Of a DNA stretch of 64,000 nt, positions 1-40,772 are shown in pieces. This DNA comes from Raillietiella orientalis (Eukaryota). Each line of letters opens with the position of its first letter. The first letter of the stretch is position 1. Below the pieces are notes generated by a model. It saw nothing but the letters and a program-made list of their open reading frames with translations. It ran no database searches and had not been told where the DNA came from. The stretch spans positions 496,001 through 560,000 of the forward strand of contig JAYWIR010000032.1 of assembly GCA_036172245.1 (NCBI GenBank), written 5' to 3'. The translations under genes and the position numbers were made by a program.

Positions 1-18
1 ACTCACTGATTGTTGTAG

Positions 19-14790: not shown

Positions 14791-16160
14791 GAGACTCGCG
14801 TTGGCAGCCGCGCGTGGCGTACCAAACGTTGCGAGTTCAAATCCTGCCCAGGGAAGGGCTCACTCCAACAGATGGGTGCGTCGTGGGTTTCGAATCCCCC
14901 CTCAGGATGACGCTGTCTGGTCTGAAGGCTTCGGATGCGACATTGGCAGACACCCGGTCACGGTGGGGTATTTACTTATGAAATAAACCTACATGTGTGT
15001 GGCAGGACGTCTGATCCTGCCACATTACTTACAACTACGAGAAGGAACCTGCCGGGATTTGGTACGCAGGTCAGCCGGGGTTCGCTTCGACAGCACAGGA
15101 GAAGGGCAGACAAACAAAAAGAAAACATAAAACAAAAAACATCAAGTCAAAAAAAGGGGAGGGTTCGGGAAGGGATCCCCGGGTTCCAGAGGGCGTCCTC
15201 TGCATCCTTGTTAAGGATTCCGGCAAGTTCCTGTTTCAAGACTCCCAGATGGGGCCATCGTGATGCCATCCTCATGAAGCGTACAATAAAATAGATGGCG
15301 TCCCTGTCGTTCTGGCCTCCTCTGGCGTTGCTGCTCCATGCAGACACGGTCCCGCGTAGACAGCAGCAAAGAGCTGCTAGAAATGCGGCCAATGTGAGGG
15401 CGTCGCACAAGAAGAGGCGCTTCAAAACGCCTCTGGCGTTGTTGCCAGGGGTACCAAGGATCGCTGCAAAGCATCCCCAGAGAGGCCAGAGGGCAACACT
15501 GTCCACTAGGTGGTGCGAGAAGGATTCCCGCTCCCTGAACCTTGCACAGTTTGGGTCTATCCCTTCTCCCTGTATTCACTGATGCCGGCGGGCGTTGCAT
15601 GGGAGTCTCCAGTGCAACAGCATCAAGGTCGATTCCTGCCACTTCAAGGGGAGAGTGCGGCACTGGTGGAAGCCGATGACCCCGTTGACTGCCGAAATTG
15701 GAAGTTTTCCTTCCGAGTCCTTCCAGGAATCAAGGAGCCATGGGGTTCCCCTTCGGCTGGGAAGAGCTGTCCCCTCCCTCTCGGGGAGGGACCTTCCATC
15801 GAGATGATTGATAGCCCTCCAGGATGTCAGAAGCACTCTGCTCCCTTCGGGTGCTCTTCAGGGGAGGAAACTAGGATCACTTCTTTTGCAGGTTGCCTCT
15901 GGAGAGGAAATTTAGGGGCGCGGATCCTTCAAGGGGGTCCCTCCGGCGAGAATAAGAAAGAGGTTTCTTCGGGATTTCTTTTCGAGCGTAAGAGGAAAGA
16001 ATCCTACGAATCCTCAGCCTTCCTGGATTCGTAAGGTGGTCGTCTCCCGGGTCTGCTCCCCAGCTGAAAAGTTAACGCGCACCCTCGGGTGGGGAGGACG
16101 GTGTTGAAGAGTTCCGTGAGTCCTGGGTTTTTGAATACTTAGCGGACCAAAAAAAAAAGA
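14791..16160 (+). mobile_element. SINE copy (head 14791-14950, body 15653-16160) split by an antisense LINE insertion
   Basis: Head gagactcgcgttggc...gagttcaaatcc; the body resumes at 15653 and matches the other copies; ends ...aatacttagcggaccAAAAAAAAAA. Confidence 0.8.
14951..15652 (-). mobile_element. 5'-truncated L1/Tx1-like LINE (ORF2 C-terminal zinc-finger region plus 3' UTR), copy A
   Basis: LKWQESTLMLLHWRLPCNARRHQ*...DPNCAR...HHLVDSVALWPLW (zf-RVT-like), T-rich 3' UTR, terminal GTGACCGGGTG, 18-bp degenerate TSD at 14933-14950 / 15653-15670. Confidence 0.8.
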
Positions 16161-16219
16161 AAACCCGAAGGAAAAAAAGCGGCAAGGAAGACTGCGAAAG
16201 CAGAACTCAAAAGGATTTC

Positions 16220-18135
16220 CATGTCCCTGAGACGCATGGGATTTCCAGCCGTCTTCCCGGTCTATCTGCACAATTTGTTTCATCGGCCATACGTGTGCGG
16301 CGTGCCCGTCCGCTGCGGCGTAAGGCACGGTGATGTGACAGCCTGGGCCCCCTGCTCTTCAGCAACTACTCGAGTATGGCGCTGCGGGCGACTCTGGAAA
16401 CCCTGCCGAGCTCGTGTCCGGGCAGGCCTGCCATGTCGACCTAAGTGGACGATCTTCTGCTGCTGTTCCTCATGACCACTCCGGTGTCAGCACTCGAGGA
16501 CTCTGAGTTGTTAAGGAGGGGCGCAGACCCTGAGGAGAACAGGGAGAAGTCGTCCTCGGTGCCTGTCAGTGCGGCGTAGGCTGGATGGTCGGACTGGATG
16601 CTCTCGGGGATCCCCACGAGTGAGTACTTCAGGTACCTTGGCGTTCCGTCGGGGAACTTCTGCGCTGCAGAAGCTTGGTCCGACCGTCTCCAAAAGTAGA
16701 GATGGAGCTTGGCCCGTTCCAGAACAGCGAGTTTTGCTTCCAGGAACAGGTCGCGGTGTGGAACGCGTTCGCGGATCTCCTTCTCTTCCCCCTGCTTCTT
16801 TCTTGCCCCCCTTGCTTTTTCTTCTTTCTTGCTTTTCCTCCCGAGGACCTCGTGAGGAAAGCCCTGTAGGGCATAGGGAGGTCTCAAAGACTTGTGTGCT
16901 CCGCGTAGGAATAGTGGACTGGACATCCTTACGCTGGAGTGGATGGAGCGTCAGCTCCTATTCAGAAGACGCCCTCGTGGCGAAACCGCGGACAACGCAT
17001 ACCAGCACGGCTCTTCGCGAAGAAAGCAACTGTCTGCGAGGAACTCGCATCCCTCCTCGTTGCTACAGAGAGATTCTTAAGGCGTTGCGGATACCAACTC
17101 CGCCAGATGGTTTCCCTGGTGGAGAAGAACAATTGGATCTCCTGACTCCACGAGAACTGCACTGACTGGTTCCAGGAGTCCATCTTTGCCTAGAGAAAGA
17201 TCCATGGCGAGAGCGAGGTAGGCCTGCCTACAGCGAGGCGTCAACGCTCTCAAGACCCTGGAGGAGATCGTTCGCAACCCGTAAAAGATGCGGTGGGCCT
17301 CGTCTATCCCCCTCACCACAGTGTTGTCCTCATAAGGCACACAAGGGACAACGTCATTCCGGCAAGGTGGAGAGTGGCGTGCTGCATAGCAGCAAAGAAG
17401 AAACTCCTAGGGGCGTTGACAACTCCCCTAGATGTCCCACCCCAAGGAATTCCACGCTAGGACTGGCTGTCCGATATCCCTCCGAAGGACGCGAATGCTG
17501 GAACAGTAACGCCTTTTCCCTCAAGTGGCAGTGGTTGGCGTTGTGGGTAGTGCATTGGGGTCTCCCGTGCAACCCCCGCCGATGTCATTGGACACGGAGG
17601 AGTCCTAGGTTCCTAGGTTCCTGTCGCGATGCTCAGTGCGACAGGCGCGGGAAGAAGGAGACCTCCCGCACCTGCTTTTAGACTGTTCTGTCCTCTGTCC
17701 CCTTTGGGATCGCCTTGCGACGGCCCTAGGAATTCCAGTGGGCGGCCCCCGGGGCATTTTCAGACGCCTCTTCGTGCCTGCGGCATTGCTGCCAGCCGCG
17801 TCCCTCGTGGTTCTCTGCTGTGTTCGCGAGATCACCACGGCCTGGAACAGCAGAAGAGGCCAGAATGGCAGGGACGCCATCCACCAGGCGTGGGTCTTCC
17901 TGTAGACCGCCTCGAGATGGCCCCACTTGGGCACCATCCGAACGGACCTTGCCGTCATCCTGGACAGAATGCAGAGGACGCCTGGCAGTATGCTGTGATC
18001 CCTTCCTTCCTCATGTGAAATTCCCCTTCTCTGTTTTTGTTTGTTTATTTTTTTTTGTGTTTTTGTTTCCTCTTCCCCCACGCTGCCGAAGGGGACCTCG
18101 GCGGTCTGCTCACCGCTCTTCGGCAGGTTCATTGC
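16220..18135 (+). mobile_element. Decayed L1/Tx1-like LINE ORF2 (RT to C-terminal zinc finger), related subfamily, copy D
   Basis: MGFP...PVRCGVRHGD (GVRQGD), T*VDDLLL (YxDD with a stop, ~16442-16462), FRYLGVP, WVVHWGLPCN...PHLLLDCSVLCPLW, then a T-rich UTR homologous to copies A-C; extreme 3' end is missing. Confidence 0.8.
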
Positions 18136-21100
18136 ACGTGGTAGAACCCAGAATTCTACCACACCAATGCATTCTTGTATCTTCACGTAATAAGTGCCCC
18201 AGCATAACCGAGTGATAAGCATCATCAAGAGTAGCGATGTTCCTGATTGTAAGTTTATAAAAGTTCAGCTGTACAACAGGTCGATAGAACAGAAACGGAC
18301 GCTACCATGGAAGATCCAAGACTCTTTGGATTTGGTTGCGAATGGAGAGGACAACCGCAAGTTGTCGATGAAAAGACGAAGGAAATTGCCTAGGATGTTG
18401 TTTCATGGATCGGCTGGGTTATGGAGAGGTATGTAGCAATCATCCGATATTTGGCCACTGCAGGCAGGCGGTGAGATTGTTCTCGTGGACCACGTCCACC
18501 AACTGTGGACCCTACGCGTTCGATGTTTTCGGCTCGACATCCGGTCCGCAAGAAGGAACGGTCGATTTGCCCTGCAGACGCGGAACTCAGGTCAAGCACC
18601 TATCTCTGAGTGCTCGGAAAGAGGCGACGTTCGACATGTGGGGTTTCCTGTTGAGCCTTTCTATCCCTGTCCATCGGGCAGGAATCTGTGCTCCTCCCTT
18701 CAAAGTGACGCCCGAATCTTATGCAAGAAGGCGAAACATTCGCCACAGTACCTCACATGCGCAACAAGTGAGGTGCGATGCCATCGGGACCACAGTGATC
18801 TCGCTTGCATCTGTGAATTCACAACACGATCGCTGAAGATTTGAAGATCAGCTACCAAAAGATATACCAATCCTCGAAAGGAACGCAGTGATGCTGATAA
18901 TTTTCCCAAATGAATCAGACAAAAATTTACAGAACCTGGAATCCTCTACGACATGGAATCACAACATGGAAATATTTTAAAAATCTAGACACGGACGTTA
19001 CAGCTGCCTTTTAAGGTGACGGAATCACAAGGTTTTATTTTTTTCCAAACGAAGTTGTTTAGTTGACATCCAGAACACGAATGTCCTCATAGCAATCGTA
19101 GCCGTTTTTATCGACGGATCTTGTGGCTGATTAAGTAATTTCGAAATTAAGTGATGATTGGTGTCGCAGCCACGCAACGAAATGAAACCCTCATTTCCGG
19201 AAGGGATGTTTGGAGAGATGAGTTCATCCCTCCATGATGACCGGGAGGACTCTTCACTTCACGATAAGGGAAGAACCTCTTTTTAGCCTGTGGACGCTTA
19301 GTTTCTCTAGGATACCGGTAATTCAGCGGTTTACTCAACAGCCCTAAATGCATCTTGACGATTTTCTTCTCGCAGTTTCTGTGGACCAGAAAATTCAAGG
19401 AGGAAGAATGCCCCCCCAAGCTGCGAGTTAAAAGTGAGGGCGGATATCTGTGAAGAAATGGTGCAAAAATCAACAATTTTTTTTGTTTGCCGCTGTCCTT
19501 TTCTGAATCTCTCGTTCGTAAGCGTGATATATCGTTTCACCGCAGCTTTGGTATCGAAAAAAAAGAAAAAAAAAAAGGTAAATGTGTTCTTGCTCACTTT
19601 CTCGACGATAGCCTTGGCTTCTCTGGTGAGAATCAAATGAGGAATATGGAGGTTCCTAGTACCATTCGAGATCCTTGCTCGTGCTGCTTCCGCAAGAGAG
19701 CAAGGCGGCGTTGATGTCCTTGATGAAAAGGCTGAAGAGGGAAAAACTACAGTCCTCTATCAAGCAGCGGTGTGTTCGGTGGATGATCACCGATTTTGTA
19801 ATTTTTTCCTCCATAAACCTTTATTCATCAGCGGAGCACGCGATACATTTCCTAACTTGGAAAATAGGTGAGTCCACAGCTCTCGCAGGAAAACTGCTTT
19901 CACTTGGCACCTTTCTGCTGGACATCCTTCTCGAATCAAATTCCAAATGATATGAATTGTGCAAATTACTATGTGTTTTTTCGTCCATTACACGCCTGCA
20001 GGACTGGGCTCACCTATTTTCCAGGTGTGCTCAAGGATGACCTTTCGGGATGAATTATACGTGTTATCTGTTTTTAAGAGGGAACAGTAACAACATGATG
20101 AGATCAAAATCATGCTTTTGTTCCGAAGCAAACCTTAGTGCTCAAAGGAGCGAGCAGCCAATCCACTCTGCCAATGCCATGTTGCGATGTCCCGAGACTG
20201 ATGTTTGCTGTGGCAACCTCAGCAACGCTTTTCATGTCAAGGAAATTAAAGAAAAAGGTGGCAAATAAGGAACCTATTTTTGAAGCTGCCGTCAGCTGCA
20301 AAGTATCCGACTTGCAAATGGCGAGTGATTCCCGAAAGGCACGAAAGATACGCAGAGATGAAGAATTTTCGAAAAGCTCGAATCGTACGTTAATCGTACA
20401 CTACCGTTTATGTGTGCGTTTGTTGTTTCTTTGGATCGCTGCTAGGCAAACCTTTTAAAAACAGAAGAACAAACTACACAGAGGTCGGCATCCACAAGTA
20501 CGCCTTCGGCTAGCCAGGGACAATCAACGAAAGACAGATTCTCTGTTCTGCCATTCCTTGTAACGATAGGGTAAAGGTCAGTGGACCCCCACGCCGTCCA
20601 ACGCCAGCACAGATTTCTAAAGTTACACTCTGGAAGGAAATATTAAAAACGAAAGATTCCCCAATCCATGAGTTTGCCTTAACCACGGTGTCCTCGAAGC
20701 CATTAGAACGACACGAAATGGTTGGTGCGCAGAATTTTGAAACTGCTTCGATGATGTCACTAGACAAAATAGAAAGTCTCTCACCGTCTACTTACAGACG
20801 TGCCGTCACAGGAAAATGCATTTCGTCGAAAATAAATAAATAAATAAATCTATGAGTGGGGCTTCAGCAGAGCAAGAAGCTGCGCTTTGGTTAAGGAAGG
20901 CATTGGATCGAAAACCGTGCAAACCTTGGTCGAGTGACTCAAGTAGAGATTCCCGTGTTTGCCAAGAAACATTATGTAATTTATGTAATATTTGCATCAT
21001 GTACACTTTTGTTTTCTTTCTTTTTTTTGAGAAATTCCGGCATTAAGCAGCATTGTCCTTCAGCACTTGCATGTCCAGCCACCATTTGAATCGTCTAAAA

Positions 21101-24100
21101 GGCAGTCCTCGTGTCAATGTCAGCCTTCGATCAAACGAAGGCAACACTTTTATTTTCTAGCTTTTATTCGTTTGGAAGCACGGAATCAGTACCCTGGCCA
21201 TAGACAGGAGGGGTCTACTAGACTGGCTGCAAAACCTTTGGTGGATCCTCATGGATGAGGCTTTCAAGAAATCTTTATAATTCTCTTCATGCTGTCCGCC
21301 ATGTGCAAGCCCAGAAAGTAGTAGTACGAGTAGAATTTCTCACACAAGAAGCAGCCGTCTTTTTTTTTTCTTTTGCGCAGGGGCATCTCCCTTTTTCTCC
21401 TTTGTGTGACGAAACCTTCACCTCTCTTGTTTCAGAAGTGTCCACCATGGCGGAACGAAAGCACGAGTAGCCTGAAACTGACAAAATCAAAATCATTCAG
21501 GTTCACCAGGACTCATGAGGAGCATGGGACAGGGAGATACCAAGCGGAAACTGTGGATTTGGATCCAAAAATTCATCCTCTAGTAAAATATCTTAGGGAC
21601 GTCTCGAATCCTTTGAGTTCTTCGGGCGCTATGTACGAATTTCTTTCACTTTTTCTTCTCACCCATGTGTGAAAAAGACTCAGCAGACATTCTGATTCCA
21701 TTTCCTCCCTCAAGTCAGAGAAACAGTTTCCCTTTGCCCCTCCTCGAAGATATGTGATTTTAGCTACAGATGTTAGGGAGCCTCCGCTACCCTCGCCATA
21801 ATCTTCGATAAGATTGAGTCAAGAATAAGGGCACCATGAGAAACCGTGCTCCACAGGTACAGTACATAAGCAAACGTGGCTGCGAACCAATCAGGTGGTG
21901 CTGTGGTTGAAACAGCACTGGTTCCACTTCAGAAGTCGGGCAAAGAACGAAGAGGATGATCAACAACAGATTCTAAAGAGCGATTCCAAGACAGAAGGAA
22001 AACATCCATTTCAAAGCAATAGTTAATCACCAATTAACGCGAAGGTGAGTGATGAAAGAGCGACCCACTTGTAGCCTTGATTACATTCAGGAAACGTGAA
22101 AAGATGACATGCAATAGGGCACTTTGCACATGTACTGGTGACCACTGTTTCAAGAACGGAAAGGATGGACATTAGGCGTTCGTGTCCAAGACGCACTCTG
22201 TCCTTGGAGCCGGTGAGAAATCAGAGACATGAAATTGTCAAGATGATGCCGTTATACCACGTGGATGTTCGATTCTTGTAAACAAGTGGTGACAAAGACA
22301 CCACGGATGAACGGAAATGATGAAAGGACGGATCAGATTCTTGCAAAGATAGAAAGTTTCAATCATAGAGTGAACAGTCTGAAGGATGAGAGTACAGACC
22401 GGTATGCAGTGGTGCGGAAGAAACCTAAAAACCAGATTTGATGCTGGGGTCTGTGATGAGAGGGAGCTTGGATTTCCAAAAACAAAAAAAACGAATCCAA
22501 AGTTGGAATGTGTCTGGGAAGATGATCTGTTGATCCATCCACTTGAAAATAAGTGGGTGGAATGAAATTTCTTGCAAGTCCCGTTCTCTTTGACCTGTTT
22601 CTGAAGAATCCATTAGATCCTGCCTAACGAGCTGCGGATTTTCCATGCTTGTTCCTCTTTCGCTGAAGAACCGCCCAACTCGAACCAGCCATTTCAGACC
22701 TCGAATTTGAGGTGAGCCCTTCGGAAGTTTCGGACGATGCATTTGGACAGCAATCCAAGTTCAGATCATTTCCTGAAACGTCCGAGAAGAGGTGATCAGC
22801 GTCTCTCAGCAAAGATTTCCAGGGATCAGGCAAATGGACTTTTGGAGAAAATCCTTCCAGTGAAATGGCTTGCTGAAGGGAAATCACCTAGCATCCCGAA
22901 GGATAAGCCTCTAAAACACCTTGGGAGGAAAGGATTATGGATTGCAAGAGAAGCAGATGAGCTGAACATCATTTGCAGTCAAAGTGCCATCTCTGTTCAA
23001 CCCTTGGAAAGCCATCCTGCTCTGACATCTTCCTGCTTCGCACCCATAGAACGGTAGAGTAGCTCAACAGGAATTCTTCGAAAAAAGATCATTCATCGCG
23101 GAATGTCTCCTATGATATCATTTTATAATATAAATATCGAAAACTGTTAGGAGGATTTTTAATTTGAAAATTGGTGGCAATTCAAAGCATTCCTTGTCAG
23201 TAATGTAGCACATTATGTATTTATGGATAATCTAAACGCTTGCTGGTATTCCTGAACAGAAGGAACTCTCCCTTGAAGACATTTCTTTTGAATCCCCGGT
23301 TCCATGTCATCTGCAATATGAATATATCCATTAAATAGTAATCGATTGATCGAAAATTTATCATGCCACATTATATACTCGAACTCCCGATGCAACCAAA
23401 TCAACCGTTTTTATAATTTGGAATGTACAAATTAAATACAATAAAGCAGTGCGAAAATCCCACGGAACCAGCAGTCCCCTAGGAAATTCTTGCTCACAGG
23501 ACTGCTAATTTGCCTCATTCCCACAGGTCACGTTAAGCGCTGCTGAATGTCTGCCCATCACACTCCAGATGCATGCATGGAAAAGAAGGCCTGTCAAACC
23601 AACGAATGATAAACAGTGTTTGGATGGCCTGTTGGCTCGGGAAACACGTGACAGCAGGGTTCTCCAGCTAAGAGGGTGTTTCTCGTTGCTGACGAGCGGT
23701 CTGCATTACGAATGCTGACCGCTGGGTTGCTGTTGGACACGCTTCGTTTATAGGTTCTTTCATAGGGTGCTATCACGTTAAAGGAAATGGACGCACAGTG
23801 CTGATTATACACGTCCAGGAGTCATACAGCAAAACTGAAGCGATGGTGTTAATGGACCAGGGATCCAAATCGAAATCGTTCTTCTGGAGCAGGCGATCTC
23901 AGAATACTTTAGAGTTTCTCTTTCTTCGTGTCTGCCCATTGTCCGTGTAACCGGGCAATGTTCCAGGAGCTGGAAACACGTGTGATTTCATCCAGCAGCC
24001 TGATGAGCGGCTCTGAAGGGCAAGTTCATCGGGAATGGCAGGTGCTCTTTGGCGCTATGCCGTCCCCAGCCGTGGAAAACGCCAGCCTGGTTTGTTTACC

Positions 24101-24589
24101 AGGAAGGCAGGCACGGGCATCCTTAGCAGATGATTTTTTTCCCCACTCGAGTGCAGTGGATCCCCGTATTCGAAGGCGACACCGCTCGTGCGGCGCGGCG
24201 AAGCAATCTCTCACGGCGCTGAGGATGAATCTTCATTTCGTGGCACAGAAGCTCGGCTGTTTCCTGGAAAAAGGAATCCGTGGGCCGAGTAGGCTGAATT
24301 CCGCTTCATTCCAAACTTCGTGGACGAAGTAGCGCGGGAAGATGCCTATCTCCGACAACGACAGAGCTGAAACTGCAAAGTTGCTTACATCCATCAGATG
24401 TGAGCAAAATTCCAAAAGCCTTTCTGAAGAGCAGTTTTAATAATGAACAAACACTTTTAATCCTTTCCTTCCGTTTTAAAGTGACATGCCAACCATTGCA
24501 ACGTCACATCTTTTATATATTTCCTTGCGTTGTCCACGTATAACCTTAGGGTCTCATAACGTTCGAGGAAGGAAGTTAGAAACTTCATC

Positions 24590-24725
24590 CTTCACCCCCG
24601 TTCCTCATCTTCCTTTACCCCCGTTTCTCGTTCTTTACCTCTGTTTCTCTTCCTCCTTAACCCCCATTACCCCTCCTTCGTTACCTCCGTTCCTCCTCAT
24701 CGTTTACCCCCGTTCCTCCTTTTCG
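24590..24725. repeat. Degenerate CT-rich minisatellite (~22-24 bp unit, TTTACCCCCGTTCCTC core)
   Basis: About six imperfect tandem units visible. Confidence 0.65.
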
Positions 24726-24729
24726 TTTA

Positions 24730-24822
24730 ACTCGGAAAGGATCCTCTCTTGGAATTCCTTTTCCAGAGGGAACCTCCTCGAGGGAATCCCTCCTTGTTTC
24801 CTCCTCTGGAGAGAACCCGAAT
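24730..24822 (-). mobile_element. Internal SINE fragment
   Basis: ggaaaggatcc...agagggaacctc...ctctggagagaacccga matches 25375-25465. Confidence 0.65.
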
Positions 24823-25031
24823 CGTTTGAGAAGTCAGCGGTGGTTGCGCAGCATCTTTCGGTGCTATCCTCTTGGAGCGGAAAAAGCTCGAGCGGTGTAT
24901 TTGTGCAAGGAGTACCTCAGGAACCTAAGGTTTCTGCTTTTCATCTTCCAAGAGTTTACTTTTAAGCGCCTTCAACAGAAGTGGTCAGGAAGGTAGAATA
25001 TGGAAGCTGCAGAGATTAACAGTAGAAGCCT

Positions 25032-25869
25032 CGTTTCTGTTTTTTTGGTTGGTCAAGTGCTGAAGAGCCGCTCGCCTCCTCGGGGGAGGACAAAGAACTT
25101 CCTCTTTTACATTGTCCACTCCACCAGAGGGTGCTTGTAACTCTTCGAGTTATAGAGGGTGTCCCAGGATGGGACCACCCAGAAGAAGAAGAAGTAGAAT
25201 CCAGGAAGACTCCAGAAGAAGGAGTCCGTCCTTCTCACGTCTGGGAGGGAATCCCGAAGGAAACTCGCCTCTCTGGTTGTCTCCGAAGGGAGCCCCGAAG
25301 GGAACCTCTTCACTATTCTCTCCTCAGCGACCTCCTGGAAGGAGCTGCGCTCCTGAATGTCTGCCCTCCCTTCCCGGAAAGGATCCGCTTTTCTGGGATT
25401 TCTTCTCTGGAGGGAACCTCCGCAAGGGAACCGTTACTTATTTCCCCCTCTGGAGGGAACCCGAAGGCACGCTTCCCAATTTTCTCTGAAGGACGCTTCT
25501 CCGAAGGGAGCCGCGCGCTTCCTGACATTCGGGAGAGGCGTCATATCCCCGAGGGGGATGTCAACCTGCTCCATGGAACGGTTCCATTTTCACAACCAGA
25601 GGGAAACCACGAAGGGGTCCTTGATTTCTGGAAGGACTCCGGAGGATCAGCTTCCAATCACGGCCAGTCATCGGGGCCTTCCGGCATCCACCAGTGCCTC
25701 ACCCGGAGCCCACAGGACCAACCAGGGTCAACTTGCGGGAGCCACATCGAAACCCTCGACGCACTTCCCGTTTCTCTGGAGTCGGTCCTTCCCCCTGGCT
25801 GGGTTCGAACCCGCAACGCTTGGCACCACGCGAGTGGAGGCCGCAGCCAAAACGCGGCCGACGCGGGCT
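25032..25869 (-). mobile_element. Best-preserved full-length tRNA-headed SINE-like element (~840 bp)
   Basis: Perfect 12-bp TSD CAGTAGAAGCCT (25020-25031 / 25870-25881); B box GGGTTCGAACCC near the 5' end; A-rich 3' tail; internal degenerate GGAGGGAACC repeats; empty target at 25687-25704. Confidence 0.88.
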
Positions 25870-26384
25870 CAGTAGAAGCCTGGTGAGTGGTCCGAACTTT
25901 AGTCTGCATTATCTCCAAAGATCTCGAGGCGTTTTTTCTTTCTTGCAGTAGTCCAGAGACGAAAGTGGCACCTTCAGGAGGCACGAACTTGATTCTTGCC
26001 AGAGAATGAGGCTCGTTCTTGGAAGACCGTTTGGTCAGTTCTTTAGTGGACGAGCGGGAATTCCTAGCCCGCAGTCCCAACGTCCAAAGGACTGTCCTGC
26101 TACGAGGCCGGTGGGCGGAGCGAAGTTTTCCCTTTTTTTTTTCTTTTTTTCTTTCAAGTGGGATCTTCGAGTTCAGACAGGTTGAAAGGGAGGCTAGTGG
26201 TTACCCGACAATTCGCCATTTGTCCGTCGGTTCCCGACACGCAAGTGACCGTTCGCTCGCCCATAAAAATAAAAAAAAACTCACACAAAGAAAGGAGAAT
26301 ATGCTGAGATTTCTTCGTTCAGGATGCTGCAACCCAGTTCTTGAGGAGGATCAATCCGCATATTCCGCAGAAGGCGGCGCTGAT

Positions 26385-27245: not shown

Positions 27246-27289
27246 GGATACCTGACCAGCACGAGAACCGAACGTTTCACGGTTCGATA

Positions 27290-27580
27290 CTTCTGAAGGA
27301 CGTATATCCCTCCAGAAGATGCTGGAGGAGCCGAAGAATTGGGTCCGTCCGTGGGTTTAGGAGGCAGCTCTGCCTTCCCTGGGGGAAAACAGAGGCAGCT
27401 GCTAGCCTGCAAGCGCTGCCTTTTTCGACACGCGACGGACGCCTGCAGGGAAAGTTTCTGGGGAAAGCACGCAGAATACCTGGAACGGTGGTGCACTATT
27501 CCCACAGTTTCCGCAGCACATGGTTTCCTCCCTGTTTGCTGGTGGTTCACATTCGGAAACCCATCTTGTGGTTCCAATAT
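27290..27580 (+). mobile_element. Highly decayed fragment of the Tx1-like ORF2 C-terminal region
   Basis: SLQKMLEEP...EAALPSLGENRGSC*PA aligns by eye to TLREILEDP (33430) and AALSALRARNDSSQPARW (50710). Confidence 0.4.
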
Positions 27581-30183: not shown

Positions 30184-30215
30184 CACATACACACACACAC
30201 ATACGCACACACACA
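30184..30215. repeat. (CA)n microsatellite, imperfect
   Basis: cacatacacacacacacatacgcacacacaca. Confidence 0.8.
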
Positions 30216-30479
30216 ACTTTGGTCACTTTCACTAGCCGAAGTAGAGGAGTACTTCCACCAAGGACGGAGGAGCAGTGACTTTTCGATTATGGGAGTCTGC
30301 ATGCGACAAGCTCAGGAAACAACCGCGGCATCCCACATAAGCAAACAGATCCCCGGCCATGTGTTCCCGGTCAGATAGGGGACTAAATTATGCAATCGGT
30401 TTCCCTGAGGTAACCCGCAATGATTCCATTGCTTTGCAAGATTGATGCACTTCTTCCAGAGCAGGTTTTGTTTTCAGAT

Positions 30480-31015
30480 TCCATCGTCATGAAGGATAAA
30501 GGTCGTTCGTCTGAAGGTAACTGAAAAGTGAAGTACCTTCATTGATATTTCTGGATACGATTCCAACGCGCAAGCACTTCTTGCAGAACAGGTCCATGCA
30601 TGTCTTCAGTTGGGCGCTGAAGACATGCATGGACGTAGGTAAGAATAGGGTCTCCGGAAATACACCCTACGAGCTAATTCGAGTATCCACTGCATCCAGG
30701 ATGGCAGAGTTGTCATTTGCCGAGAAACCTCCCCATGCTAATGCCTCCAAATACGTCATAGTCAGATCCTAAAACGGTGAATCAGTTGTTCATGACATCC
30801 AACGATATCACTCTGGGAGTTAGAGCGTTGAGGGTTTTATTAATGATTTCTGCTGACTCTTGGCATCTGTCATGGGTTTGCTTGCAATATGCATACGTGA
30901 CATCACAACTGATCAGAAGACTTCCCCTTAATGTTTTTTGATTAATTGAGTTTCCATAGGGAAACGAGCTGATTTTTTGTCCTGTTTTCAAGTCTCCGGG
31001 CCATACGAGATGCAC
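30480..31015 (-). mobile_element. Decayed Penelope-like (PLE) reverse transcriptase remnant
   Basis: GSLLISCDVTYAY (xLxSxDVxxLY), NN*FTVLGSDY..GISMG (NxFxF.G..Y...GxxMG), VLARWN...YFTFQLPSDERPLSF (LN...FT.E...LPFLD) appear in PLE order. Confidence 0.55.
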
Positions 31016-32149
31016 GGGTTTGGGGCCAGTTTTTGGATGGCATGCTTGATCTCTAGGTGGAGATCTGCAAAGTCCGAAGTGAAGGCCAACATTATTTCTA
31101 CGAGGGAACCCGCTTTCAGGGGGAAGCCTACACCGCTAGAAGTTTTACTAGACTAGAAGGAAAAGCACACACACAAAAAATGAATATCCGTCAGAAAGAG
31201 GTCCGTCCGGTCACCCTGAAATACTCATGTGGGAGCAGCTCGTAGGTCGAGGAAGAGGGTGGTGTCCGTTAAGCAGTCAGACAACTTCGAAGTGCTAAGA
31301 TCTGCTCGAGATGCTCGATTGCTCAAGAGTGCAAGACTTCGAAAGGACTCAACTGCTTCATTCGGGAAACCAAGATCTGTCAGTCACGTGACTCTCGGGA
31401 CGATCTGTCGGAAGACGGCAGCAGAGAAGAACATCCTGTTCACAGTTAGTGGGCCGCAGAGGATGTCGCAGCCGATGGAAGGCAGTCGGCATCCACGGGA
31501 TGGACACGAGGACTTGTGAAATCAGCCCACAGAGCGAGTGCTGTCGAACCGATCAACGGCCGCAGCTGAGCAAGAAAGTGACACCCATAATCGCCGTGTT
31601 TTGGATCGTGGAGAGTCGTGCGATGGAAATTTCGAGTTGGCTGATCCGAATTTTGGCGTCACTTCCATGACTCTATTTTTTTTTTTTTTTTAACCTTGAC
31701 GCTTTCTCATTTGGAAGTGTTCAGGAATCTTCCAAAATGTAGCCGAAACTTCACAGCCAATCGGAAGTCATTTCCGCGAGGCGGCTCGCTCCAGACTGGC
31801 TTTCCAAATCTTTTCCACGGTCAGCACTGGCTGCTGCATCATGGAATTCTGCTCACAGAGCCGTGTTTTTTAGACAACAGCTTGAGTTCTTTAGAATCCC
31901 AAAGCGAATACACACGCTCGTGGGAACTACTGGACAATGATTTCTGCACTTCCCGTAAACCCAGAAAAGTCCTGGAGGCATTGATTCCACGGGCCAGGCT
32001 TCGATTCGTGCCATTTTTTTCTTCTTCTTCTCCGTTTTCTTCTCTGTTCTCCCATGATGTTTTCCGATGCTTCACGCACACTCATGATCATTCAGCTCGC
32101 TAGGTGAATCGGTAACGAACTGGCACTTTTGCAAGTGGACATGGCCCAA

Positions 32150-32347
32150 ATGGAGAATCTGATAAGAGAAGTTTTTTGATCACAGATCAGGATTGGTTCA
32201 TGGATGTCAGTGCACTCTCTGCATGACGACCTCTCCATGCAGTTTAAGTGAGGTACATCAGAGAATGAATATGATGGCTCTGGACCATCTTACAGTTCTT
32301 TCTTTCCGAACATCTTGCAGTTCAAATAGAATGCTTGTTATCGTTTC
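32150..32347 (-). pseudogene. Cytochrome P450 fragment (I-J-K helix region), duplicate 1
   Basis: Reads TITSILFEL... then EL*DGPEPSYSFSDVPHLNCMER; direct repeat of 38025-38272. Confidence 0.45.
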
Positions 32348-32994
32348 TTATTAGTGAAACGGCGCAAAGGAGTCTGGGAGGGGGGGATGCTGCGTTCGTG
32401 GATTCTGCTGTTTTAAGCATCCGAGGCGGACGGACTCTGCTCAGTGCGGATTCCTTACACATGCCCGTGGTTCGAGTCCCAGACGATGGAATCCCATCCG
32501 CAGGACCGGGTTAATGGATCGTGATGGCTACACCGAGCATTATGATTACCGGTTCGGTGAATGGTACTTTTGTCTTGTTCGTTTCGATGAGAGCGTCTAA
32601 GAATTGCCCGCTTCCATCTCCATCTGGGTTCATTCTTCTGCTTGAAAGAAGACAGTTTCATAATTCAGTCTGATGTGCACTCGGAAAAGAGAGGGCAGGT
32701 CAATAATATATTTTAGTTTTTTTACGCTTTTAGAGTAGATGAACAAGAAACATATCTTCGGGGTTGCTCAACATTACGAAACCGGGAAACCATTTTTAAA
32801 AAGTCGCGAATATTTTTTTTTGCAGCTGCCCATTATGTTCTTGGATTTTGATTTCCTGAGGGCCTCACTAATCGGAAGCATCTCTGAACTTTTTTATTCG
32901 CTTTTTTCCAGAATCAATTGCAATGGTGTTAGCCCTACTAGGATTTCAGTGTTTTGGGGGGTTATGACAGCAGGCGTCGTATATTCTGAATCTC

Positions 32995-34608
32995 TTTTTT
33001 TTCCGGTACGTTAAGTGCTGAAGAACCGTTCGCTTCCCTATGGGGGGCTCAGAAAGTTCCTTACCACTGTTCACACCACCCGAAGGGTGCGTGTAATTCT
33101 TCAACATAGGGGGTAGTCCGGGAAGGGACCACCCTATGAATCCAGAAAGTTTCCGGAGTCTTCCGTTCCTCTTACGGTTGGGAGGGAAACCAGCTCCAGG
33201 GTACGTGATGGTGCGGCTCCATTTTCATAACCGGAAGGAAAAGCTCCAAAGGGATACGGCTCCTTCATTCCTGGAAGGGCCACCGGAGGGTCAACTTCCA
33301 ATCCTGGCCAGTTAACGGGGTCATCTAGTTTCCGGTTGCCACTTGTACCTCACCACCTGGTTGCAGGAGCAAAGATCCAGGAGCCAAGCGCGGAACAGGT
33401 GCGACGTTTCCTGTACTCGCGTAACAGCTGCACGCTCCGGGAGATCTTGGAGGATCCTGCGAAGAGTGCGTGGGCAAGCAGAACCTCCTTCGCAGCCGCG
33501 GTGCCCTCTCCTAGAGAGCACAACAACAGCAGTTTTACAGATAGATGGGAGGTTAATGTGAAAATTTCCAGGAAAAGGAGAGGACTGGGAGAGTGGACGA
33601 CAGGCCAGCTCACCGACACTGCGACCCCGAGTGCTCATGGACGCTCGACCTCATGGACTTTGGCGCTGGGACGTGCTGCTGGGTATTCCGGAGTAAGACC
33701 TGCAGTGATCCCCAGTGCTCATGAACACTCGCACCATCTTCTTAAAGTTCCAGGAGTCGGCATAGATGCTGCTGCCCCGGGGGCTCCCGTGCAACGCCTG
33801 CCGGCATCACTGGCCACGAGTGTGGGTGGATCCAAACTGCGCAAGGTGCAGCTAGTGGGAATCCCTCCCTCATTTCCTAGTGGACTGTGTTTCCCTCCGG
33901 CTCCTTTGGGGAAGCCTTGCCGCAACCTTTGGATTCCTCGGTGGCAACCTCAGAGACGTTTTAAAACGTTTCTTGCTAAGCGACACCCTCACACCTGCCA
34001 CATTCCGATCAGCACTTTGCGGCTCAGGCAGCGAGACCATGGCTGCATGGAGCAACGCCAGAGGAAACCAGGACGACAGGGACCCCATCTCTTTTGCTGT
34101 ACTATTCATAAGAACAGCGTCAAAATGTTCCCATCTGGGAACAGTGATTCAGGAACTTGCCAGCATCTTTACAAGGATGCAGAGGATGCCCTTCAGCACA
34201 CAATGATCCCTTTCCGAACCCCCACCTCTTTTTTTTTACTGTATGTTTTCTGTTTTGTTTTTTTCTTTTTCTTTGTTCCCTCTTCCCTTGTGCTGCTGAG
34301 GCGAACCCCGCTGGCCAGCGTGCCAGATCCCGGCAGGTCCTTCTCGTAGTTGTAAGTAGTGTGGCAGGATCAGACGTCCTGCCACAGACAAGTAGGTTTA
34401 TTTTATAAGTAAATACCCCGCCGTGACCGGGTGTCTGCCAATGCCTCACCAGAAGCCTGTAAGACAACCAGCGTCATCCCAAGGGGGGACTAGATACCCA
34501 CGACGCACCCATTTCTCGTTGGCGATTTTTCCCCGAGCGGGATTCGAACTCTCAACGCTTAGTCCCACACGCGGAGAGTCTGCAGCCACACAGTCGCCAA
34601 CGTGAGAC
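32995..34608 (-). mobile_element. SINE copy (body 32995-33355, head 34434-34608) split by an antisense LINE
   Basis: T-run plus aagtgctgaagaaccgttcg 3' end; head gggattcgaactctcaacgctt at ~34539-34560. Confidence 0.8.
33356..34433 (+). mobile_element. 5'-truncated L1/Tx1-like LINE, copy B (about 390 bp longer than A and C)
   Basis: Homologous to copies A, C and D (GLPCNA...DPNCARC...DCVSLRLLW); 3' hairpin and GTGACCGGGTG end; TSD at 33338-33355 / 34434-34451. Confidence 0.8.
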
Positions 34609-36146
34609 GTATGGCTACTCCATTCTGAACCTTTTGATACATGAAACTGACCTATCGAGGAAATAGTGGCGGACTTACTGCTGAGGGCGATGTGGATTTG
34701 CCTGCAAGTGGTAGCCTTTCGGAGAGAACACATTCGTGCCTCGGTTGCCGCGCGCATACACAGGTACATACATACACCTACATACTTACATCCACCCACC
34801 CGCTCATTCAATAGCTTCCTATTGGTGAGGCAGGCGTTATTTGAAACCAATCTCCAAGAAGGAAGTCGAGAGTCGGCAGATTAGCCATAGTTTTTCTTCG
34901 CTTCTTAGGAACTCGATAACGTTTCGCTGAGATAGGAGATGGTGGCATGTGACCCGATGGTCATGCCAATAAGAATGTGTGCAAAACTTCCCAATTTCTA
35001 AGAAATGGCCTACGAAGTAGAATACAGGGCTGCAGCGGGGATCTCACATTCCTTTGTCTCTTAGACAATCTGGAATGATTGAAAAACGAAGCATTTTCAG
35101 CAGGAATGTCCGCCAACGGACACATCATCCCTGGAGCAGATAGTGGATACGGCAACCGTGCAAAACTTCAGGAAGTTGGTGTATCACATACTGAAGAAAA
35201 TCCACAAGCGGGCGAAATCTTAAAGAATCGGGGGAGGTTATTGACTGCTTTTTGCAAGGATCAACCTTTTTCTGGGCGGCAAACAGTGTGCTTACGACAA
35301 ACAGATAGTCTGGAGCGGCAGCCAGTAAGGCTTTAGACATGCGGGCCTGGAGCTGCTGGAGACTAAAGAGAGGCAAGGAAGCCATTTCGGAACAGCAGCA
35401 TGTTGAAAGGCACGCAGCTTCCGTGGATCCATGCCGAAGAAGGTTACTACGAAGATGAAAATTGGCCACGGTGCAATAGCTGAAAGCGCTCCAGCGAAAT
35501 ACCAGCAAGGCAATCGTCAGGAGAGGAAAGTGCTAAAGGTAATGTCATCAGAACTTGGGCAAGTGGCTGTTCAGTATGCGAGAAAGTTTACTGCCCCATC
35601 ACGACACTGCTTCACGCAGAGAGACAGCGAAGGCTGTCCATCATGTGCACAAGATGCCTATGCTAATTTTGCATATTTACGGTCAATCAAAGAACACGGC
35701 AGGGTACGCTGGATAAATTCCACTGTCAGTGACCATTAGGGACCATGAACACTACGGTGAGCCCACGCTTGTTTCTTATGCGCATTACATATCAAGTATT
35801 GTCTCTAATTTGTTTTAACAGGGTAATAGATCTCCATGGTGAAAGTAATGATGGTTCAAATCGAACGGATCAAGAGTTGTTATTGCAGTCTCATCTCACG
35901 CCCTGGGTGTGGCCTACGGGAGGCAAAGAGACGAAGGGTTTCTTTGCCTCTTTGAGATGAGTGATTCCGATGAGGATGCTGGAAGATATATGGCTTAAGG
36001 ACAAAAGCAATGGCAGACTTTTGTTCGCCAAGCTCATATCATTGTTTCAGATGCCATCTTTTTGCATCAAAAGGTATATTTTATTTATAAGCAAGGCAAA
36101 TCCCTAGCATTAAGTAGAAAATAAATAAAGCATACACAATAAAAGT

Positions 36147-37228
36147 TCAATATTTATCTTCGACTTCCCCATCTTCAACAGAGTCCATCCTCATCTCTTC
36201 ATAATCTTTCTCCAGAGCAGCAAGATCTTCCTGGCCTCCACAAATCCTCCATCCTCCATAACATCGCCAACATGACAGTGAACCAAAGCCCGTTCAGCAC
36301 ACATCAGATCAAACTTATGGTCCAAATGAGCACACGATTCAGCAATTGCTGTAGTGTTGGAAAACATGCAAACAGCTCTTTGCACTTTGTCAGGAACAAC
36401 TGTAGGTGACTGATAATTGATGCAAACTTTGAAGCTGGTAAGGTACCAATCCACAAGATGCATAGAACGTTTGGTTTTGATGGTAGCACTTGCCTCATCC
36501 ACATCCTTGGGCACAACATCTCCCCTGTACAGCATGCAGCATGCCATATGCACTCCACTTTACCATTTGATCTGCTGGTTGGAAGCAGGAATTGGTAATC
36601 TCCGATACCCTCAGTTGCGCCTCCTCAGCAGAGATGTCTGGTGCACAAGCAACAAATGGGGAACAAATCAGTGGGCGTGGCACGAATTTCGTTCGAAATT
36701 CTTGACAGAATTTCAAACGAATTCCCCACATCCGGAGCACCATCAGAACGCATGGAAGCTGTGATTAAAGAAACAGTCTGCCTGATTAGTCTGTTCAGAC
36801 TGGTGCAGGCTGGCCTTTCAACGTCAGGATTGCGGCGACAAATGTCATAAACTGGCTCATTGTCCACCATGGACGCGCAGTCGGAATGCTCCAAGGCGGG
36901 GCGCGCGTCGTAAGGTTGAGTGATATCGTTCCGCAAGTGCAGTGGACGCTTGAGGAGCTGGCCAAATAGCAAATTCCAATTTCGACTGCTTCCCGCAATC
37001 CACACCGAGTCATGCATTAAGCAGATGCGCAAAACCAGAGCCAGAAAACTCCCCTCCTCCAAACGAGTGAAAAATGAAATCTTATAAAGCAGTGCACTGA
37101 TCCTCTAGCTTGCGAATACGATCTAAGATGCGGTCTGCGATTTCCTTGCCAATTGTGTGATGCCCACGAGCATGGTCGCTGGCTGCATCCTATCCATCAG
37201 TTCCCAGTTGCTCAGGATGAAACAAGCC
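36147..37228 (-). pseudogene. Processed alpha-tubulin pseudogene, 5'-truncated (from about residue 85 to the C-terminal Y)
   Basis: LFHPEQL...[31 protein letters not shown]...[31 protein letters not shown], ...EVEDKY*. No introns; multiple stops, frameshifts and deletions. Confidence 0.93.
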
Positions 37229-38024
37229 AGCACTTGCACATGGCATTGCGTGTCAGCGGTGGAGCGTGTCATTTCATACCAAGAAGAAAAGCAAAATCGA
37301 GGTACGATGGCAGTAGCATGCATGACCTTTATCAAGTCTGACTCGATTTCAGATCACTGCATCTGGGATGAAAACGCTAAAACGCGCACCAAATTTTCTG
37401 GGAGGAAGAAATGAAGAAAATTCGGGGCTCGTCACGCGGTGGGGACACTGGACAGAGAAAAAAAGGCAGTTCTACTGAAAATCCTCTGCCGATTGCCAGA
37501 GTTTAAAAGACTGGACTAACAAGTCCCGAGGAGAGTTTCTATCCATTATGCTTTGATTCCTGCTTCCCCCTTTCTGTAGAAGAACTGAAATTGGGTGCGC
37601 ACTTTCCGTTCTTCGGCACTTCTAAGCGTCTTTTCAATGCACTCTTCCGTTTCTCCATTGGTTTCTTTCCTCCTTTTTGACAGCAAGGACAAGTAACCTT
37701 TACCGATGCTGACCCTCATCAGCATCGATAAAGGTTACTCGGGCCGTTTCTTGGTTACAGTTTCTTGGGTGACCAGGGTGGATCTACTGCGTAATCGAGA
37801 GACAAAGATATGATGACTTTCGATCGCTGACATTTGTCAGTTTTTCTACTCGTGCCTGCAGAGACACAGCGTTGATTTTGCTAGAGGATGGCACGGACAC
37901 CAGAGCAACCGGATCTCTGCTTGGCTCCAGGTCTTCTTTCCGGAATCTTTCAGCGCCTGTGGTTTAAACCTCAATGCTGGACGCAAGCAGGGCTGCGATT
38001 CTTCCTCCTTTCCTGCTGCTGCTC

Positions 38025-38272
38025 AGAGAATCTGATGAGAGATTTTTTCGATCACGCATCAGGATTGCTTCATATGCTCTCTGAATGGCAGTGCACTCTG
38101 CATGACGATCTCTCCATACAGTTTAAGTGGGCTACATAAGAGAATGAATATGATGGCTCTAGACCATCTTACAGTTCTTTATTCACCATCGTACAGTCCT
38201 TTCTTGACGGTCGTACAGTTCTTTTTTTCAGAACATCTTGCAAGTTCAAATAGGATGCTTGTTATAGTTTTT
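38025..38272 (-). pseudogene. Cytochrome P450 fragment, duplicate 2, with internal tandem duplications
   Basis: TITSILFELARCSEK...EL*DGLEPSYSFSYVAHLNCMER; extra copies of a tacagtt/cctt motif at ~38170-38225. Confidence 0.45.
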
Positions 38273-39450
38273 TATAAATGAATATTACTCTTCTCTTTCT
38301 GACCGCTGCCCTCCGGGCTTGCATCTATTGCTTGGGGTTTGAGACGCCATCAGGTAGGGATCCCAGCTCAGTCAGTACATGTCACGGCTGCAGCGGATAA
38401 ACGATAAAACCATGAGTTGTCACACCTTGATTGCTCTTTGGCAGCACTACTTCTGGTTGTAGGTTGGATCCCACCAATGTCAGGGACGCATCGGTTGGCT
38501 GACATCACAGGCCATTCAGCAGTCTTGGATGCGGCATGTTTCAATTTCTCGACACTTGCGGCATGCTCAGCAGTGTACAGAGATAAGTGCCTCGTGCAAT
38601 GATTCATTATGTAAGGCAGCGTCTCATCCCAGGAAACACGTCGTCGGCGGGAACGGTCCTCTTCTTGTAGCTCCCGTACGGCAATCGTCAAGCTCCATTT
38701 GTCCGGTGAAGTCCTACTCGGCACATGGGTTTTCATCAGTTCAGGTGATTCTTGATCGAAGATTGCAAGCTGCAGTGCAGAGGTGAATTTTCTTCGCAGT
38801 GACGCTTGAAAAAGAAGGTGCTTTGGATCCGTCTATCATTCCAGATCGCGGCCATAAATTTCGTGATGGACAGCTGTCTTAATGCTCCTGGCTTCGCCTA
38901 CACCAGCCGTACATGGAATTCATCACAAAGAACTCCACACTCGGTGTTCAAAGGACGAGTTCTGATGAATCCTTGTTCTGAAGATTCAAGAGGACATCGA
39001 GAGCACCTGGTAGAGCTGAGGTGACCTGGACCTTATCTCAGAGAGAACAGAAAACGATTGACGGGAACAGAACGCCTGACCTTAACATTAGGAGGAAAGA
39101 AACATGGCTCGTTGCATTGCTGCGAACGCTGCAATGCAACGAGCCATGGGGCTGTGCCTGATAAACGAAAACAGTAAGGTAAGGCGGACTCATCTCATGA
39201 GTTGGGCTGTATCATCTCATGGAAAGGAAGAGCCTTCTCTTCCTTTTCATCGGAGGGCATTTGAAGCTCAAAGACTGCTAGGACATCGTCAACATAGCGC
39301 CCCACACAAACCACGCCTTCCTGGGACAGCGTGGATCTAATGTGCCGAAGGTGCGCAGCGTGGAAGCGGGAAGCAGCACAGATTTCATAGAAACGTCTGC
39401 TGCCGGACAACGGAGGCATCCGGTTTCCGGCCTCTACCAACGTCCTACCC

Positions 39451-40154
39451 TTAAAGTATCAGGAGTCGCCGCTGCTGCTGCTGCACTGGGGCCTCCCTTG
39501 CAGCGCCCGCCGGCATCAGTGGATACGGGGAGAGGGGGTGGATCCAAACTGCGCAAGGTGCAGGAAGCGGGAATCACTCCCTCACCACTTTGTGGACTGT
39601 GTTGCCCTCCGGCCCCTCTGGGGACTCTTTGCCGCGACCCTTGGAACCAACGGCGGCAATGCCAGAGACGTTTGAAAACTCCTCTTCCTGAGCGACGCCC
39701 TCACGCCGGCAGACCGCAGTTCGATCAGCACTTTGCTGCCCAGGCAGCAGGACCGTGGCTGCACGGAGCAACGCCAGAGGAGGCCAGGACGACAGGAATG
39801 CCAGCCATCTATTTTACTGTACTCTTCATGAGGATGGCATCAAGATGGCCCCATCTGGGAGTCTTGAAACAGGAACTTGCGGCATCCTTACGAAGATGCA
39901 GAGGACACTCTCCAGCACCCAGTGATCCCTTCCCGAACCCGCCATCCCATTTTTTTGACTGTATATTTTGTGTTTTGTTTTTTTCTTTTTGTTTGTTCTG
40001 CCTTCCCTTGTACCGCCGAGGCGAACCCCGCCGGCCTGCGTACCAGATCCCGGCAGGTTTCTTCTGGTAGTTGTAAGTAACGTGGCAGGTTCAAACGTCC
40101 TGCCACAGTCGTGTACGTTTATTTTATAAATGAATGTCCTGGCGTGACCGGGTG
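39451..40154 (+). mobile_element. 5'-truncated L1/Tx1-like LINE, copy C, flanked by SINE remnants (39405-39450, 40155-40210)
   Basis: Long near-identical stretches with copy A (YFTVLFMRMASRWPHLGVLKQELA); GTGACCGGGTG end; TSD tctaccaacgtcctaccc / tcaaccagcgccgtaccc. Confidence 0.8.
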
Positions 40155-40734
40155 TCAACCAGCGCCGTACCCGAAGTCTGTACTATCCTGCGAAGGGGAC
40201 TGGAAACCCCTTAATCGGCCTCGATTCTTTATTTTCACCCAGTCACGCCGGAACAGTTGAAAATTGGAAATTGGAAAAAAAAATATTTACAAAAAAAAAA
40301 ACAGTCGCATAAAATATAAAAAAAACGTCTTCTCAGTGGTTTTAAATGACCACTACGAAGAAAAATGCCTCGGAGGCGCTGCCTCTCGTGAGCAGCTCTT
40401 TTGATGAGGTCCGCACAGAAGTGGGGAAAGGGGTAAACAAAAACAAAAAGCAAAACTCAAAAGAAAACACGAAAGTAGAGTTTATAAAATGTGTTAGAGA
40501 GGGAAAGGAAGGGATCATAGATTACTCCCTGGTGTCCTTGGCAAACCCTGGAAGATGTTGGCAACTTCCACGTTTTGCTGGCAGAGACGTGACCATCTTG
40601 TCGCCTTCCTCACGAAGTAGCAGACGGTTCGGGATGACCTCACTGTTCGACTGGCCTCTTTCGGCGCGACCACTTCTCGCCGCCACCATCCCTGCGAAGG
40701 CAGCACGGAGCTGCAAGGGAAGCTGCAGCCAATC

Positions 40735-40772
40735 CTCCAAGCGGAGATTCGAACCCGCGACGCTTGGCACTG
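40735..40772 (-). mobile_element. Isolated SINE head fragment
   Basis: gattcgaacccgcgacgcttggcac matches 25803-25826. Confidence 0.6.

Follow-up and report, generated by a model that had tools for sequence, protein, structure and literature searches.

The LINE copies

The stretch analysed here, a 64-kb window of Raillietiella orientalis DNA (contig JAYWIR010000032.1, positions 496,001 to 560,000 of the forward strand; all coordinates below are those of the window), contained a dispersed repeat resembling a short interspersed nuclear element (SINE), three copies of which were interrupted by 3' fragments of a long interspersed nuclear element (LINE). Copy A (14951-15652, minus strand) was a 702-bp 3' fragment that comprised the end of the second open reading frame (ORF2) and the 3' untranslated region (3' UTR), with the terminus GTGACCGGGTG; it was found with blastn and matched positions 3-710 of the nhmmer LINE profile (E 1.5e-215). 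Copy B (33356-34433, plus strand, 1078 bp) and copy C (39451-40154, plus strand, 704 bp; nhmmer E 3.2e-219) were 3' fragments found with both blastn and nhmmer. The blastn identities were 80.9% over 719 bp for A and C, 77.0% over 723 bp for A and B, and 80.1% over 734 bp for B and C. None of the three copies carried a poly(A) tail. The motif GTGACCGGGTG was present in the window four times exactly and once with one mismatch, against 0.66 occurrences expected, and a count of five was reached in 0 of 100 shuffles. Three of these matches coincided with the 3' termini of the three copies, at the coordinates given in the initial annotation, which had placed the three LINE copies antisense at one site in three repeat copies. 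This arrangement was borne out for all three by blastn, nhmmer and direct reading.

The 5' ends of the copies were at three different positions. The homology common to all three began at 15653 in A, ~33730 in B and ~39445 in C, and B extended 375 bp further into LINE sequence. Within this extension, 33447-33629 represented the part of ORF2 upstream of the start of A and C, with a tblastx match to a related LINE copy, F (36% over 61 aa, E 4.9e-10). The protein match P0005 aligned from profile position 108, which is upstream of column 143, where A and C begin. Because the extra piece of B is LINE sequence, its truncation point differs from that of A and C. At the 5' end of A, TCCCC was followed by TTGAAG, which corresponded to the first bases of C (TTAAAG), so that A was ~5 nt longer than C; in the place of TCCCC, B had TCTTC and a further related copy, D, had TTCCC. 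A, C and D might have shared a natural 5' boundary as copies of a short non-autonomous element; this was ruled out, since D and F were collinear (tblastx) for at least 850 nt upstream, and the continuation of B as ORF2 also contradicted it.

The host repeat

The repeat was ~740 bp in length, which is long for a SINE, and its nhmmer profile had 743 positions. Seven dispersed copies with unrelated flanks were found, and homology between loci ended at the repeat edges, so the loci are not segmental duplicates. Four copies, all on the minus strand and identified by nhmmer and a search with an 18-mer that marks the insertion site, carried the site empty: E1 (8691-9440, site 9254-9271), the fragment E2 (10773-10919, site 10783-10800), E3 (25030-25888, site 25687-25704) and E4 (44739-45388, site 45213-45230). 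E2 was also considered as a filled site and rejected, as the SINE continued to the left of the 18-mer and no LINE 3' end adjoined it. A fragment without the site was found by nhmmer at 24732-24864.

The host of A (14741-16157, plus strand) was split by the LINE into a head (14741-14950) and a tail (15653-16157), and its nhmmer matches were 14741-14947 and 15651-16157, at profile positions 2-197 and 181-733. The host of B (32997-34635, minus strand) was likewise split into a tail (32997-33355) and a head (34434-34635), with nhmmer matches at 32997-33354 and 34435-34635. The host of C (39402-40770, minus strand) consisted of three pieces (39402-39450, 40155-40235 and ~40730-40770), separated by two LINE insertions, C itself and a further tail, G; this host had looked like a mere fragment because G interrupts it. 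Its nhmmer matches were 39456-39402 and 40770-40738, and the remaining sequence was read directly.

A run of 7-9 A was present at four of the five aligned 3' ends of the repeat, the end of E4 being degenerate. A SINE that shares its tail with the LINE as a partner was ruled out, because the repeat ends in this A-run and is dissimilar to the LINE 3' end. The initial annotation had described the repeat as a tRNA-headed SINE. In favour of this, a T-arm-like GCGGGTTCGAATCCCGC with a box-B-like core was found near the 5' end in five of the six aligned heads and also in the head of C, while the head of A carried GTTCAAATCC in its place. Models of tRNA gave no support: ARAGORN found no tRNA in the window, and Rfam gave no tRNA match at E<=1 window-wide, nor at E<=10 in two heads. 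A tRNA-derived head is therefore plausible but unproven. Stop-free frames of at least 120 aa overlapping the repeat copies contained no Pfam domain. The middle of the repeat (8900-9100, 25200-25530 and 15760-16000) contained loosely repeated units of ~40 bp resembling CCGAAGGGAACC, and its length differed among the copies, with profile positions ~370-535 missing from the host of B.

The 18-mer site, filled and empty

The site was defined by an 18-mer with the consensus TCCACCAGTGCCNCACCC, which matched six times in the window with at most three mismatches, compared with 0.07 matches expected. These six were the four empty sites, the copy on the 5' side of A (15653-15670) and the copy on the 3' side of C (40155-40172). 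All six were inside repeat copies, which span only ~4 kb of the 64 kb. The other four 18-mers that flanked the LINE copies (14933-14950, 33338-33355, 34434-34451 and 39433-39450) had 4-5 mismatches and were identified by direct reading. In the LINE sense, A (minus strand) was flanked by TCCACCAGTGCCGCACTC on its 5' side, with one mismatch to the consensus, and by TCTGCCAATGTCGCATCC on its 3' side (14933-14950). B (plus strand) was flanked by GCCACTTGTACCTCACCA (5' side, 33338-33355) and TCTGCCAATGCCTCACCA (3' side, 34434-34451), and C (plus strand) by TCTACCAACGTCCTACCC (5' side, 39433-39450) and TCAACCAGCGCCGTACCC (3' side, 40155-40172), the last of which was recovered by the consensus search. 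The left and right copies agreed at 12 of 18 positions for A, 11 of 18 for B and 14 of 18 for C. Removal of the insert together with one 18-mer restored the continuity of the repeat. The agreement between the flanking copies, the four empty sites and the filled fraction of three of seven site-bearing repeat copies, the last derived with the nhmmer repeat profile, were all as the initial annotation had stated.

The length of the duplication was less certain than its presence. Mismatches between the left and right copies were concentrated in the first part of the 18-mer: 11 of 24 comparisons differed at positions 1-8, with 4.3 expected from private divergence (Poisson P 0.0045), whereas 6 of 30 differed at positions 9-18, with 5.3 expected, which fits a duplication. 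The direct contrast of the two parts was suggestive only (Fisher P 0.075). The duplicated sequence may in fact be only 10 bp long, TGCCNCACCC, in which case the preceding 8 nt on the right-hand side would be a target-like tail of the element itself. The flanking copies were thus found, but a duplication of the full 18 bp was not firmly supported.

Coding capacity and 3' end of the LINE

In the correct frame, the insert encoded an ORF terminus containing a CxxC...H...C region. The match of this region to the zf-RVT domain was weak (E 0.0098, 17 bits, below the 27.5-bit cut-off). When a profile of the three copies was compared with 1.84 billion proteins, only three matches were obtained, all short, unnamed and metagenomic, one of them an 87-aa protein (E 1.4e-17). 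The other two, P0005 and P0006, had the same Cys/His spacing as the LINE copies (pairwise BLASTP E 8e-11 and 6e-11), and both are read as putative C-termini of LINE ORF2. The ESM Atlas returned only unnamed clusters with low recognition, and no longer homologous protein was found in the protein collections for the 324-aa frame of copy F. Scans of metagenome contigs with the three-row protein alignment and with P0004 gave pattern matches, none of which was confirmed by tblastn. The DNA pattern of the LINE 3' end matched two Streptomyces loci among genome contigs (L001 and L002), which were taken as chance, and gave 0 matches in viral contigs.

No match to the reverse transcriptase (RT) domain RVT_1 and no endonuclease domain was found with Pfam in the 119 stop-free frames of at least 120 aa in the window, and a search of the 43 frames upstream of copy F with a threshold of E<=1 gave neither RT nor apurinic/apyrimidinic endonuclease. 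Every LINE copy was truncated 3' of the RT, so the negative result applies to the window and does not extend to the family. With no RT or endonuclease domain in the window, the label "Tx1-like" given to the copies in the initial annotation was not confirmed. Three hallmarks of a LINE were nevertheless found in the copies: a constant 3' end, 5' truncation at varying points and duplication of the target site.

The 3' UTR contained a hairpin, GTGGCAGG...CCTGCCAC, with a stem of 8-10 bp, located ~45 nt before the LINE end. It was found at 34361-34385 in B, 40083-40107 in C, 14999-15023 in A and 18138-18162 in D. In the diverged family represented by D, the hairpin was preserved through compensatory changes on both sides at three pairs. 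Such conservation would be expected if the RT recognised RNA structure at the 3' end.

Related LINE tails outside the site

Three related copies were not at the 18-mer site. Copy D (16747-18214, plus strand; tblastn and nhmmer) was outside the SINE and ended in ATAACCGAGTG, followed by ATAAGC, and its amino-acid identity to A and B was 40-46%. Copy F (50113-51719, plus strand) was also outside the SINE and ended in GTGACCGGGTG, followed by AAAAACTT. The tail G (40236-40729, minus strand; nhmmer E 1.8e-27) ended in GTGACTGGGTG, followed by AAAATAAAG. G belonged to a related subfamily and was inside the SINE host of C, at another position, in the SINE sense and without the 18-mer. G and C were arranged tail to tail, their 3' ends separated by 81 bp of SINE sequence.

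Since D, F and G are at other sites, use of the 18-mer site is a property of the A/B/C subfamily. Unlike A, B and C, these copies ended in ...GTG followed by A-rich sequence (18210-18225, 51709-51730 and 40225-40246), which may represent either a short A tail or an A-rich target. The LINE profile also gave weak plus-strand matches at 9423-9636, 10150-10233 and 10291-10348 (E 1.5e-8, 3e-4 and 0.026). These start directly at the 5' end of E1 and probably represent remnants of older LINE copies.

Other features of the window

An M1 aminopeptidase was encoded at 3-1224 (plus strand) in two long coding stretches (Peptidase_M1 E 5.7e-60 and ERAP1_C E 1e-28). The stretches were ~20 nt apart and the frame changed between them, as with a very short intron or a frameshift. 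The Atlas cluster nearest to this peptidase consisted mostly of arthropod sequences, a weak lead. An isolated fragment of a tubulin C-terminal domain was present at 36194-36559 (minus strand, E 6.9e-23), and a cytochrome P450 fragment at 63138-63647 (plus strand, E 7.5e-10); these may be exons or parts of pseudogenes. The dinucleotide TA was depleted over the whole window, with an observed/expected ratio of 0.52, and TAA and TAG were each at about half of expectation. Stop-free frames of 150 aa or more numbered 61, and most of them had no Pfam match. As TA depletion creates many stop-free frames, open frames in this window are not evidence of genes.

One insertion or three

The best explanation for these observations is that A, B and C were separate 5'-truncated insertions into SINE-like repeats of ~740 bp that had already been dispersed. 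Taken from the sequence, the arrangement probably reflects a site-specific or strongly site-preferring LINE, one subfamily of which inserted independently at each locus. The copies share site and orientation, the target is duplicated around them, the same site is empty elsewhere, the 5' ends differ and the 3' UTR hairpin is conserved. The two findings that the initial annotation had named as contrary to its proposal were looked for within the 64 kb. Instead of one or two shared 5' junctions, the three filled sites had three different ones, and instead of lying mostly outside the SINE, all three 3' ends of the subfamily were at the site. The core proposal, that a SINE nucleotide serves as the landing pad for one LINE subfamily, thus survived this test on the scale of the window, and the interpretation as a whole, which included Tx1 membership and a tRNA origin of the repeat head, was supported in part.

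Further evidence for separate events came from private variants of the 18-mer. Position 18 was A in both 18-mers of B, and in both 18-mers of C position 9 was C and position 14 was T; in each case the state was absent from the eight other 18-mers. If a single ancestral insertion had been multiplied, each of these two-sided variants would have had to arise twice, in parallel, to the left and to the right of the LINE. In 400,000 simulated runs under a single origin, at least three two-sided private variants arose in 0.3%, 1.6% and 4.4% of cases at per-site divergences of 0.15, 0.225 and 0.30, respectively. The LINE parts supported no grouping of A with B: the site patterns were 43 for AB|C, 76 for AC|B and 66 for BC|A, or 8, 16 and 17 when polarised by D, and the LINE parts are star-like. 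The host repeats formed no clade on the tail side, where A and B shared only two exclusive sites, fewer than several other pairs and not the highest count. Global identity matrices of the SINE flanks were too noisy to discriminate, and the left flank of B was cut 6 nt short in them.

Several observations weigh against independent insertion. The right 18-mers of A and B, which read TCTGCCAATG, share T3, G4 and A8; these states were absent from their own left copies and from the empty sites, which read TCCACCAGTG or close to it. Three such right-only states had a probability of 6e-5 to 1.3e-3 under independent evolution, and it follows that something links A and B on the right side. On the head side, A and B were the top pair, with nine exclusive shared sites compared with 1-6 elsewhere. 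A and C were truncated ~5 nt apart. D, F and G have the same terminal motif, yet none of the three was at the 18-mer site. The window also contains no RT or endonuclease sequence by which the specificity could be tied to a protein. Finally, there were only three copies, all old (private divergence ~6-11%), and all from a single 64-kb window.

The first alternative is that one or two original insertions were multiplied together with their SINE flanks, by composite retrotransposition or gene conversion, so that the common site would reflect common descent. The starts of A and C within ~5 nt, the right-hand states shared by A and B and the head-side count of this pair would all be expected from such a history, and the flanks of A and B, with 77-81% local identity, were about as similar as their LINE parts (77%). 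Against it, the 375 bp of genuine LINE sequence in B start exactly at the SINE/LINE boundary, and a deletion that produced the form of A and C would have to begin precisely at that boundary. The two-sided private variants in B and C (P 0.003-0.044), the lack of an A+B clade in the LINE part and the low tail-side count of A and B also disagree with a single origin. In addition, the head-side excess of A and B fell to six without the three 18-mer positions, which equals the count for E1 and E2. Multiplication of an original insertion is, on this balance, unlikely.

A second alternative, which appears equally improbable, retains independent insertion but attributes the site to homology: transcripts of source copies that lie in SINEs would carry SINE-derived sequence at the 3' end, either a read-through flank or the 8-nt target-like tail TCTGCCAA, and this would direct priming to the corresponding place in other SINE copies. 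The excess of mismatches at right-hand positions 1-8 over that expected from a duplication, with positions 9-18 in agreement, is what such a tail would produce. A and B also share the right-hand variant TCTGCCAA, and the ends of D, F and G in ...GTG and A-rich sequence contain no such tail. There is a precedent in R2Hm-B, the 3' terminus of which has been interpreted as including 15 bp that derive from 28S (PMC5035012). On the other hand, the contrast between the two parts of the 18-mer was only suggestive, and the right copy of C differed from those of A and B at three of the eight positions. If the tail resembles what lies upstream of the nick, it should not be able to pair with the priming strand under the standard target-primed model. 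A and B were also not sisters in the LINE part, contrary to a shared source lineage. Even if the 8 nt are read as a target-like tail, the need for separate insertion events is intact.

Chance, or a general liking for repeat-rich DNA without a defined site, can be given almost no weight: the fourth tail, G, was also inside a repeat copy, at another position and in the other orientation, but two further insertions at the same nucleotide and on the same strand had a probability of ~1e-8 (uniform over ~4 kb of SINE, both strands), and both the duplication of the 18-mer and the existence of empty sites demonstrate that the event was precise.

Proposed mechanism of insertion

Three features of the mechanism are inferred only, namely the specificity of the endonuclease, the order in which the strands are nicked and the joining at microhomology. 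In the proposed mechanism, the endonuclease of the element would nick the SINE-sense strand, either immediately beside the 18-mer or inside it, after position 8. The RNA, recognised through the 3' UTR hairpin and the terminal ...GTGACCGGGTG, would then be reverse transcribed from the nick. The other strand would be cut 10-18 bp away, which would give rise to the duplication, and the truncated complementary DNA (cDNA) would be joined at short homologies with the constant target end. The LINE sequence at the start of A and C (CGCACCATCTTC in B) resembles the target end CNCACCC. The nearly equal truncations of A and C may therefore reflect repeated capture of the cDNA by the constant target end through this short match. 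More tentatively, the relatives of the subfamily may insert beside A-rich sequence, and A/B/C may have switched to a single SINE site of 10-18 bp, entered only in antisense orientation, with an 8-nt imitation of the sequence adjacent to the cut.

Comparison with known elements

In LINEs of the stringent type, such as UnaL2 of the eel, the RT recognises a stem-loop in the 3' UTR. These elements are not site-specific, and their tail is common with that of a partner SINE. The LINE described here resembles them in the conserved hairpin ~45 nt before a fixed 3' end that is not poly(A). It differs from them in that A, B and C are all at one site and in that the SINE has no similarity to the LINE tail.

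Fixed insertion points are known for families of the Tx1 clade in interspersed Mariner, Harbinger, piggyBac-type and long terminal repeat (LTR) elements, and further targets are small nuclear RNA (snRNA) genes, 5S genes, satellites and microsatellites (PMC4494074). Examples are Tx1L in the piggyBac-type Tx1D, Tx1-Mar in Mariner-N4_AMi, Tx1-9_AMi in Harbinger and Keno in U2 snRNA genes (PMC4494074). The present LINE is similar to these families in its fixed position within an interspersed, multicopy mobile element and in the many 5'-truncated copies (PMC4494074). The duplication of 10-18 bp is comparable with the 16 bp at the Mariner-N4_AMi site, and the Cys/His zinc-knuckle region at the end of Tx1 ORF2 may have a counterpart here, where the zf-RVT match was below the cut-off (PMC4494074). 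A working criterion for target specificity in Tx1 families is that more than 20% of flanks are of one kind (PMC4494074); the flanks here were of one kind in three of three copies, with n only 3. Unlike the Tx1 targets listed in that source, the target of A, B and C is a SINE-like retroposon, and unlike the SINEU elements mobilised by Tx1-Mar, which have poly(A), the three copies have none (PMC4494074).

The strict insertion at a single site and the lack of need for poly(A) are also features of R2 in the 28S ribosomal RNA (rRNA) genes, in particular of R2Hm-B, which is similar as well in a possible target-derived stretch at the 3' end that shifts the apparent junction (PMC5035012). The two systems differ in that R2 uses a gene array and a restriction-like endonuclease, while the LINE described here occupies a dispersed repeat (PMC5035012).

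Significance of a SINE as the probable target

The known targets of site-specific LINEs include rRNA, snRNA and tRNA genes, microsatellites, DNA transposons and LTR elements. No LINE with a SINE as its fixed target was found in the open full-text literature, the scope of which does not extend to Repbase and subscription journals, and this target class is probably unreported. Nested pairs of a LINE within a SINE could be mistaken for composite repeat families in annotation. Site-specific LINEs serve as models of how an endonuclease and an RT find one address and as leads for targeted gene delivery. If the present interpretation is true, the SINE would be a new class of target that offers thousands of dispersed, harmless landing pads. 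The A/B/C subfamily on one side and D, F and G on the other would form a natural pair for mapping the residues or RNA features that alter specificity. For the LINE itself, a retroposon of the RNA polymerase III type would provide safe landing pads throughout the genome, and its use by A, B and C would represent a recent change of specificity within this group of families.

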